Part shown: positions 390 through 633 of the stretch, piece by piece | How positions within the stretch are numbered: position 1 is the stretch's first letter | Layout: each line of letters begins with the position of its first letter | Source of the DNA: a virus | Lineage: Duplodnaviria; Heunggongvirae; Uroviricota; Caudoviricetes | Length of the DNA stretch: 4,465 bases | Virus record (IMG/VR): IMGVR_UViG_2690316156_000013 | Location: 1 to 4,465 of that record | Direction: 5' to 3' (one strand) | Program-made: the position numbers and the translations under genes | Notes under the pieces: model-generated | What the model saw: only the letters and a program-made list of their open reading frames with translations | Database searches by the model: none | What the model was told of the DNA's origin: nothing

Positions 390-553
390 GAACGAGTATC
401 GAGATGGCACATAGCCTCGCTCAAATTGGAGTCAGGTTTGTGCCAATACCAGTAGAAACAGACGAAGAATTTCATACGTTAGCCACATCCCTTTCACAAA
501 AGCTGGAAATGATGGTGGCGAAAGCAGAAGCAGATGAGAGAGACCAGGTATGA
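362..553 (+). CDS. small exo-xis region protein, lambda orf63-like (63 aa)
   Basis: 63-codon ORF overlapping the previous gene by 28 nt. Translation [63 protein letters not shown] matches my recollection of lambda orf63 in sequence, length and position. Confidence 0.75.
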   Translation: MHKASPVELRTSIEMAHSLAQIGVRFVPIPVETDEEFHTLATSLSQKLEMMVAKAEADERDQV

Positions 554-633
554 CAACCACTGAATGCATTTTTCTGGCAGCGGGCTTCATATTCTGTGTG
601 CTTATGCTTGCCGACATGGGACTTGTTCAATGA
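550..633 (+). CDS. candidate 27-aa hydrophobic (single predicted TM helix) micro-protein, not in ORF track
   Basis: ATG 550-552 overlaps the orf63-like stop (TGA 551-553) as ATGA, and its own stop TGA 631-633 overlaps the next ATG (630-632) as ATGA. Translation is MTTTECIFLAAGFIFCVLMLADMGLVQ, with a 16-residue hydrophobic core. A GAGAG purine run lies about 7 nt upstream. A short ORF can arise by chance, hence the low confidence. Confidence 0.3.
   Translation: MTTTECIFLAAGFIFCVLMLADMGLVQ

Follow-up and report, generated by a model that had tools for sequence, protein, structure and literature searches.

The DNA analyzed here, a stretch of 4,465 nucleotides referred to below as the window, spans the exo-to-int arm of a prophage of lambda type and reads along pL transcription. 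The window opens with the C-terminus of exo (1–210), followed by orf60a (201–389, DUF1317) and by a homolog of orf63 on the plus strand (362–553; 63 residues; Pfam DUF1382, E-value 7.7e-31), which is annotated at this place in phages 434 and mEp332 and in RefSeq E. coli entries. Further downstream come an orf61-family gene in its 71-residue form (630–845, plus strand; the start used by PGAP and in 434 and mEp332, with the same frame open from 564), a 31-codon ORF (842–937, plus strand), orf73 (944–1165, TraR/DksA zinc finger), an Ea22-like gene (1162–1944), several small genes and then xis and int. Between orf63 and orf61 the ORF listing contains a 27-codon ORF on the plus strand (550–633), coding for the peptide MTTTECIFLAAGFIFCVLMLADMGLVQ; we refer to it as the micro-ORF and to its product as the 27-mer. 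The segment 362–845, which includes the micro-ORF, is 90–99% identical to 179 phage records and is present in 3271 of 5426 complete E. coli genomes.

The micro-ORF shares nucleotides with both of its neighbors. The TGA stop codon of orf63 (551–553) overlaps the ATG of the micro-ORF (550–552), forming ATGA at 550–553 on the plus strand, which is also an exact mosaic breakpoint. At the other end, the last codon CAA (628–630) and the stop codon TGA (631–633) overlap the ATG of orf61 (630–632), forming a second ATGA at 630–633 on the same strand. Both overlaps, as read from the letters of the window, are exactly as an earlier note on this DNA had described them. A 4-base overlap of start and stop codons is how genes of this operon usually meet (550, 630, 842 as GTGA, 1162 as GTGA, and 2371), and other, divergent DUF1382 genes likewise overlap whatever gene follows them by ATGA or GTGA. 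The sole Shine-Dalgarno-like element upstream of ATG 550 is a (GA)4 tract (536–543, plus strand).

The junction at 2371 belongs to a second hydrophobic 27-codon ORF of the window (2371–2454, plus strand, MSWPDAIVTLGVVFAAAFVVFSICRWG). Its ATG overlaps the stop codon of the ORF at 1946–2374 as ATGA, and a DUF4222 gene follows at 2459. Using tblastn, this ORF was found at 93–100% identity in 6 phage records, while other records give full-length matches of 52–63% identity with weak E-values (0.3–0.4). Because the upstream ORF (1946–2374) matches DUF551 over its first 16 positions only, the second ORF could be the remnant of a rearranged gene.

The 27-mer is dominated by a hydrophobic helix extending from C6 to about V26, with an apolar core of 16–21 residues and two cysteines. 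The only charged residues are the two acidic ones, E5 and D22 (net charge −2); there is no lysine or arginine. The Kyte-Doolittle maximum in a 19-residue window is 2.33, compared with the usual transmembrane threshold of 1.6, and a 21-residue window, CIFLAAGFIFCVLMLADMGLV, reaches 2.42. By this measure the segment is long enough to span a bilayer, and the suggestion of the earlier note that the product is essentially one hydrophobic helix is borne out. The summed Hessa free energy of the 19–21-residue windows is about 0 to −0.7. The helix has no basic flanks of the kind expected from the positive-inside rule, which is unusual among small membrane proteins. An open frame alone is unremarkable here, as 43% of dinucleotide-preserving shuffles of 553–629 stay open; shuffles that are both open and equally hydrophobic make up 0.16%. 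Searches of the 27-mer against Pfam, PHROGs, NCBIfam, PADLOC and PDB returned no significant match; with the defence-system models of PADLOC, specifically, 0 families were found.

The peptide is well conserved within a narrow range of genomes. In a tblastn search of phage genomes, 175 records including lambda matched the 27-mer at 92% identity or more, and the exact 27-mer occurs on at least 981 contigs. The micro-ORF is intact in 137 of 140 unique 750-nt contexts and is carried by 101 of 113 metagenome loci collected with an anchor set outside the ORF. Among about 445 pooled loci (IMG/VR, metagenomes, phage records and E. coli genomes), an indel within the micro-ORF was seen in a single contig of about 1.3x coverage (L375), so that frame-disrupting indels, which the earlier note had named as grounds for refutation, are otherwise absent. 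Losses of the micro-ORF do occur. Two contigs carry an ATG-to-ATA allele, which makes the orf63 stop TAA and shows no other difference from the window in the micro-ORF or orf63; another allele has Q27stop, and Escherichia sp. E1V33 has lost 14 nt. Among known copies, DNA identity does not fall below about 89%, and all of them are confined to Escherichia-type lambdoid phages. A search for distant homologs by tblastn at E-values up to 10 in phages and plasmids returned only near-identical copies, and none was found outside Escherichia-type lambdoid phages. We also looked for syntenic micro-ORFs by way of the divergent DUF1382 genes; unrelated genes come next to them, with no micro-ORF, and this route was abandoned. 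The orf61 family, too, is restricted to Escherichia, its matches in 'other species' being lambda spike-in contigs. Contigs of up to about 48 kb with the lambda-type allele (L009–L022, recognizable by an extra A) are found in assemblies labeled as Shewanella, Pseudomonas, Bradyrhizobium, Oceanobacillus, Kitasatospora and others; they are almost certainly contamination with lambda control DNA.

Selection on the reading frame was analyzed using 38 alleles of 553–629 from the approximately 445 loci, which together contain 32 distinct SNP events. In the frame of the micro-ORF (frame 1), 15 of the 32 events are synonymous against an expected fraction of 0.27 (p = 0.011), and among events found in two or more alleles the proportion rises to 9/14 (p = 0.0034). 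The other frames show no such excess: 10/32 in frame 0, that of the 564 extension (0.28 expected, p = 0.38; shared events 2/14), and 6/32 in frame 2 (0.28 expected, p = 0.91; shared events 3/14). The synonymous bias, for which the earlier note had proposed to look, is thus present in the frame of the micro-ORF only. The accepted neighbors served as controls in their true frames: the orf61 core has 30/80 synonymous events (0.27 expected, p = 0.024; shared events 21/44) and the orf63 core 20/73 (0.26 expected, p = 0.46; shared events 12/28). The three common SNPs (561, 621 and 630) each fall on a frame-1 third position. One of them, A630G, is present in 10 of 37 alleles and turns junction 2 into GTGA; it is synonymous in the micro-ORF (CAA to CAG) and leaves a valid start for orf61. 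One allele has five changes inside the micro-ORF and an unchanged peptide, and the same is true of the VT2-Sakai-type allele with its three changes. Relative to the most divergent allele (L310, 89% identity over 500–680), NG86 estimates of pN/pS are 0.12 for the micro-ORF, 0.14 for orf61, 0.32 for orf63 and 0.93 for the frame-0 extension. The test is a narrow one, with only 32 SNP events and no homolog below about 89% DNA identity; the events are few because the copies are all near-identical and come only from Escherichia-type lambdoid phages. As judged from these substitutions, the micro-ORF is under purifying selection at the amino acid level, as strong as that on its accepted neighbors. The same bias in frame 1, together with the 0.16% of shuffles that are open and as hydrophobic, supports the view of the earlier note that this is no chance ORF.

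The DNA upstream of the micro-ORF is mosaic. In DLP12-type prophages, including that of E. coli B, the part homologous to the window starts exactly at 550, and the gene in the place of orf63, a Dam methyltransferase (Pfam Dam, E-value 2e-56), ends in the same ATGA. Comparison of these genomes thus makes the start of the micro-ORF a cassette boundary, like those found between genes of lambdoid phages. In each of the loci examined, the 'MTPQQE' form of orf61 comes next after the micro-ORF, and the two travel together. What lies upstream of orf61 varies: the Dam methylase gene, a DGQHR-domain gene in E1V33 and an unassigned gene of 250 codons in L187. In the DLP12 prophage of E. coli B (L309, NZ_CP014268.2), the micro-ORF, orf61 and orf73 lie beside a truncated Dam methylase gene. 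In the DLP12 prophage of K-12 MG1655 (L327) the whole segment is lost and exoD adjoins xisD; start-site data from K-12 are uninformative for the micro-ORF because its DLP12 prophage has no such region.

The coupling of the micro-ORF to the preceding gene is preserved across these contexts, as ATGA is found in every one of them, and the strength of the Shine-Dalgarno element differs. After orf63 it is weak, the (GA)4 duplex amounting to −5.6 kcal/mol and ending at −7, whereas the GGGAGG behind the Dam methylase gene forms an anti-Shine-Dalgarno duplex of −10.3 kcal/mol. The element before ATG/GTG 630 (GTG in about a quarter of alleles) has −3.9 kcal/mol, among the weakest measured in the block. 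In rare putative alleles, a 2-nt contraction of the (GA)4 tract fuses orf63 in frame to the micro-ORF. Six distinct 89-residue database proteins joining Orf63 to the 27-mer were found (P0105, P0107, P0112, P0114, P0116 and P0124; 1–8 sequences each), two of which (P0116 and P0124) read '...ERPGMT(T/A)TE...' at the joint; those whose origin could be traced arise by the loss of one GA unit from (GA)4 just before ATGA. A programmed −1 frameshift joining Orf63 to the peptide was considered as well, the frames being related by −1, and was rejected: there is no slippery heptamer, and the fusions that could be traced result from mutation of the DNA.

The 27-mer is 100% identical in phage lambda, where the micro-ORF runs from 31008 to 30925. 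The earlier note knew of no gene at this position of lambda; the identical ORF is nevertheless there, masked by the annotation of another one. Lambda 'orf61' (lambdap37, NC_001416, 31024..30839, corresponding to 534–719 of the window) starts at the equivalent of ATG 534 and contains the whole micro-ORF in another reading frame. At window position 561 lambda has G for T, which is synonymous in the micro-ORF and converts the frame-0 TGA at 561–563 to GGA, and ATG 534 reads through in lambda because this change removes the frame-0 stop. In addition, the run of A at 690–695 is one A longer in lambda; the insertion shifts the frame and is found in 2 of 77 alleles, those of the lambda lineage. Because of these two changes, the 61-residue product of lambda is an artefact of a frameshifted gene, extended at its 5' end relative to the 71-residue gene that nearly all other alleles carry, and lambda Orf61 has indeed been remarked to look truncated and unfolded (PMC8614690). 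In 933W (ST933Wp10) and Phi24B (vb_24B_7c), a protein of 93 residues is annotated from ATG 564, covering the frame-0 stretch 564–629 on the plus strand and overlapping 70 of the 84 nt of the micro-ORF. In all three phages orf61 and the micro-ORF are thus the same DNA in different frames. RefSeq/PGAP, 434 and mEp332 annotate nothing in the 76 nt that separate the two genes. The micro-ORF had been called unannotated, which is correct for the reference records, since it is missing from RefSeq/PGAP and from the examined records of lambda, 434, 933W and Phi24B, but not for GenBank and UniProt: some E. coli records of GenBank list the exact 27-mer as a 'hypothetical protein', and UniRef has it as A0A0A2SGE8_ECOLX. 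The peptide string was found neither in the literature searched nor in the Sakai supplement, and the literature searched contained no mention of a UniProt identifier for the 27-mer or of Ribo-RET work on lambda. As for the 71-residue orf61 protein, many RefSeq/GenBank entries name it 'cell division protein ZapA'. This name looks unsupported, as the 93-residue form, within which it lies, has no Pfam match at E-values up to 0.01 and no NCBIfam model reaches its cut-off.

Ribosome profiling of lambda (Liu et al. 2013), as cited in PMC8614690, revealed extra exo-xis ORFs, orf2311 (7 residues) and orf2313 (31 residues). The 27-residue ORF is absent from the extra ORFs listed there. Both orf2311 and orf2313 belong to the same conserved exo-xis block and to the same class of overlooked small ORFs as the micro-ORF. 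The 31-codon ORF at 842–937 is probably orf2313, at least by the length reported there. It overlaps orf61 by GTGA and has no synonymous excess (9/28). The same stretch holds a strong hairpin resembling an intrinsic terminator on the transcribed strand (868–882), GGAGCTACAGGCTCC followed by TTTTTTATTA.

We also considered RNA-based functions for the region. Neither an antitoxin nor a toxin leader nor any other Rfam family matches the region of 550–633 at E-values up to 1. No stable RNA fold is predicted there (the region is less stable than its shuffles, z = +1.69), no terminator was found upstream of the micro-ORF, and no antisense promoter lies near it. The sole promoter-like site within 300–1000, at 918–889 on the minus strand, comes from a crude consensus scan and is no more than shuffles give. 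A structured RNA, an attenuator or a type I toxin locus was rejected on these grounds. Type I toxins (Hok, Ldr, TisB, Ibs, ShoB and DinQ) do resemble the micro-ORF in being hydrophobic peptides of 20–50 residues, often prophage-borne; unlike their loci, the micro-ORF is an internal cistron of a polycistronic operon with no antisense promoter-like site near it. Lambda Kil, too, is a small product of the pL operon, non-essential and host-directed. Kil, however, is a 47-residue non-membrane FtsZ inhibitor encoded between cIII and gam, and kil is not in the window; no similarity between the two was detected. The likening of the 27-mer to Kil and type I toxins in the earlier note is unsupported, given no detectable homology to either, no Rfam antitoxin, no antisense promoter and no PADLOC match, and a toxic or exclusion role would be pure analogy.

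Several alternatives to a genuine peptide gene have to be weighed. One of them is that the real gene is the 93-residue orf61 started at ATG 564, with the 27-codon frame an accidental overlap. Besides the annotations of 933W and Phi24B, it can draw on PHROG 303, which aligns across all 93 residues, and on the 93-residue entries common in databases. It can also draw on E1V33 (L008, 1400–1520), where a DGQHR-domain gene replaces orf63 and ends in GGAGGCGGCATGA; that ATG, ATGA-coupled and preceded by GGAGG, reads in frame 0 into orf61. The E1V33 arrangement is best read, from its sequence, as the 14-nt deletion inside the micro-ORF (ATGACAA joined to TTTCT...), and this junction is in no complete E. 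coli genome. ATG 564 itself lacks a usable Shine-Dalgarno element (−3.8 kcal/mol, placed at −14), and neither the SNP events nor pN/pS reveal any frame-0 coding constraint between 564 and 629. In this stretch 13 of the 22 frame-0 codons end in T, and frame-0 stops are missing, because the frame of the micro-ORF carries hydrophobic NTN codons; the openness of frame 0 would accordingly be a by-product. Moreover, the extension is not general among orf61 homologs. In the common P0010-type mosaic (a cluster of 344 sequences), an unrelated gene of 250 codons replaces both orf63 and the micro-ORF, and orf61 begins 8 nt past the stop codon of that gene, behind its own GAGG, with 'MTIEHNNAL', which aligns with 'MTPQQENAL' and thus corresponds to a start at 630. 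An AlphaFold/RoseTTAFold study places the fold of the 93-residue Orf61 at residues 24–93 (PMC8614690), leaving residues 1–23 outside the consistently predicted part. A start of the downstream gene at 564, named in the earlier note as a possible refutation, hence fits less well than 630. We judge that frame 0 of 564–629 is probably not under coding constraint and, by the same comparisons, take the conserved orf61 gene to be the 71-residue form starting at 630; that the micro-ORF is an accidental overlap of a 93-residue gene appears quite unlikely.

There are two further alternatives. The micro-ORF may be translated purely as a relay from orf63 to a poorly initiating orf61, the peptide itself being functionless and degraded. 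The ATGA overlaps at both ends, the weak Shine-Dalgarno element of ATG/GTG 630, the micro-ORF never occurring without an 'MTPQQE' orf61 downstream, and its absence from orf61 copies that have their own GAGG all agree with this explanation. Nevertheless, a pure relay needs an open frame only, and leaves unexplained the pN/pS of 0.12, the peptide unchanged in alleles with multiple SNPs and a hydrophobicity matched in so few shuffles; we hold it to be unlikely. Least probable of all is that the interval is a non-coding spacer, the 5' leader of orf61, with an ORF that arose by chance and was kept by hitch-hiking between conserved genes. The large proportion of shuffles that remain open and the 76 nt without annotation in RefSeq are what such a spacer would lead one to expect, and among copies 89–100% identical in DNA intactness alone means little. 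Yet the third-position periodicity of SNPs in a single frame, the hydrophobicity far outside the shuffle distribution, the mosaic breakpoint that falls exactly at the ATG and brings a new strong Shine-Dalgarno element with ATGA again, and the lack of conserved RNA structure make this reading very unlikely.

The explanation that we favor, and consider reasonably probable, is that the micro-ORF is a genuine small gene of the early leftward (pL) operon for a 27-residue hydrophobic-helix peptide, which might act at the membrane and whose translation would at the same time serve as a relay. Sequence comparison supports the coding reading along several independent lines, each of them modest, and on these the micro-ORF is very probably a real gene. 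Against the full explanation stand the P0010-type mosaic, in which orf61 functions without the micro-ORF, and the weak Shine-Dalgarno element before ATG 550 in the common orf63 context. So do the lack of any basic residue in the peptide along with a summed Hessa free energy of only about 0, the losses of the micro-ORF (the ATA allele, Q27stop and the E1V33 deletion), the lack of a family, structure or defence-system match that would give a functional lead, and the restriction of the extra ORFs listed in PMC8614690 to those of 7 and 31 residues in this block.

Under the favored explanation, the simplest reading of the junctions is a chain of termination and reinitiation from orf63 through the micro-ORF to orf61. 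Ribosomes ending orf63 at UGA 551–553 would re-initiate at AUG 550–552, in the Dam methylase variant with the aid of the strong GGGAGG, and those ending the micro-ORF at UGA 631–633 would re-initiate at AUG/GUG 630 of orf61. Translation of the micro-ORF would thereby have two outcomes, a peptide and the passage of ribosomes from orf63 on to orf61. The peptide may matter beyond its translation because of the amino acid-level constraint and the extreme hydrophobicity. It would insert in the inner membrane and might, with low certainty, have as its target a host membrane protein or the membrane itself; through this action it might contribute, again with low certainty, to the host-directed effects biasing lysis versus lysogeny that have been reported for the exo-xis region.

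A peptide of this type would not be without parallel. The small single-helix membrane proteins of E. coli, known from the small-protein work of Hemm and Storz, include YohP, KdpF, MgtS and AcrZ, which are of similar size, consist of a single hydrophobic helix, fall below length cut-offs and are sometimes translationally coupled within operons. No sequence similarity was found between the 27-mer and YohP (27 residues), KdpF (29), MgtS (31) or AcrZ (49). The 27-mer also differs from these proteins in being phage-borne and in that, without a basic flank, it cannot be oriented by the positive-inside rule. By its sequence features, the micro-ORF would encode a further phage protein of a known kind, small, hydrophobic and coupled to its operon neighbors.

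If the gene is real, the lambda, 933W and Phi24B references are wrong at this place, the start of orf61 would move to 630 and a new gene would be added. Deletion mutants of orf61 have been published for both lambda and Phi24B (PMC6213356). Since the deleted ORFs (31024–30839 in lambda, vb_24B_7c in Phi24B) contain all or most of the micro-ORF, these deletions would also have taken the peptide gene; their phenotypes are not assignable to Orf61 alone and would need re-assignment, which weighs most in lambda, whose orf61 is frameshifted. A bolder version of the favored explanation makes the 27-mer a host-membrane effector of lambda and Stx phages that is part of the cause of the 'orf61' deletion phenotypes and also sets the level of Orf61 through the relay. 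We regard it as rather improbable. Were it true, it would concern lambda especially, where orf61 is frameshifted and its product predicted unfolded while the peptide gene is intact, and the relay would be a two-step termination–reinitiation whose target is the putative DNA-binding Orf61.

The importance of the finding would be smaller if the peptide were merely a translational relay, and its interest stems mainly from the presence of the micro-ORF in lambda and its concealment by a long-standing annotation. Few parts of lambda are still as poorly understood as the exo-xis block, and in Shiga-toxin phages this block affects prophage induction and hence toxin release. If the micro-ORF is indeed a gene, lambda would gain a further small membrane protein through sequence analysis alone.
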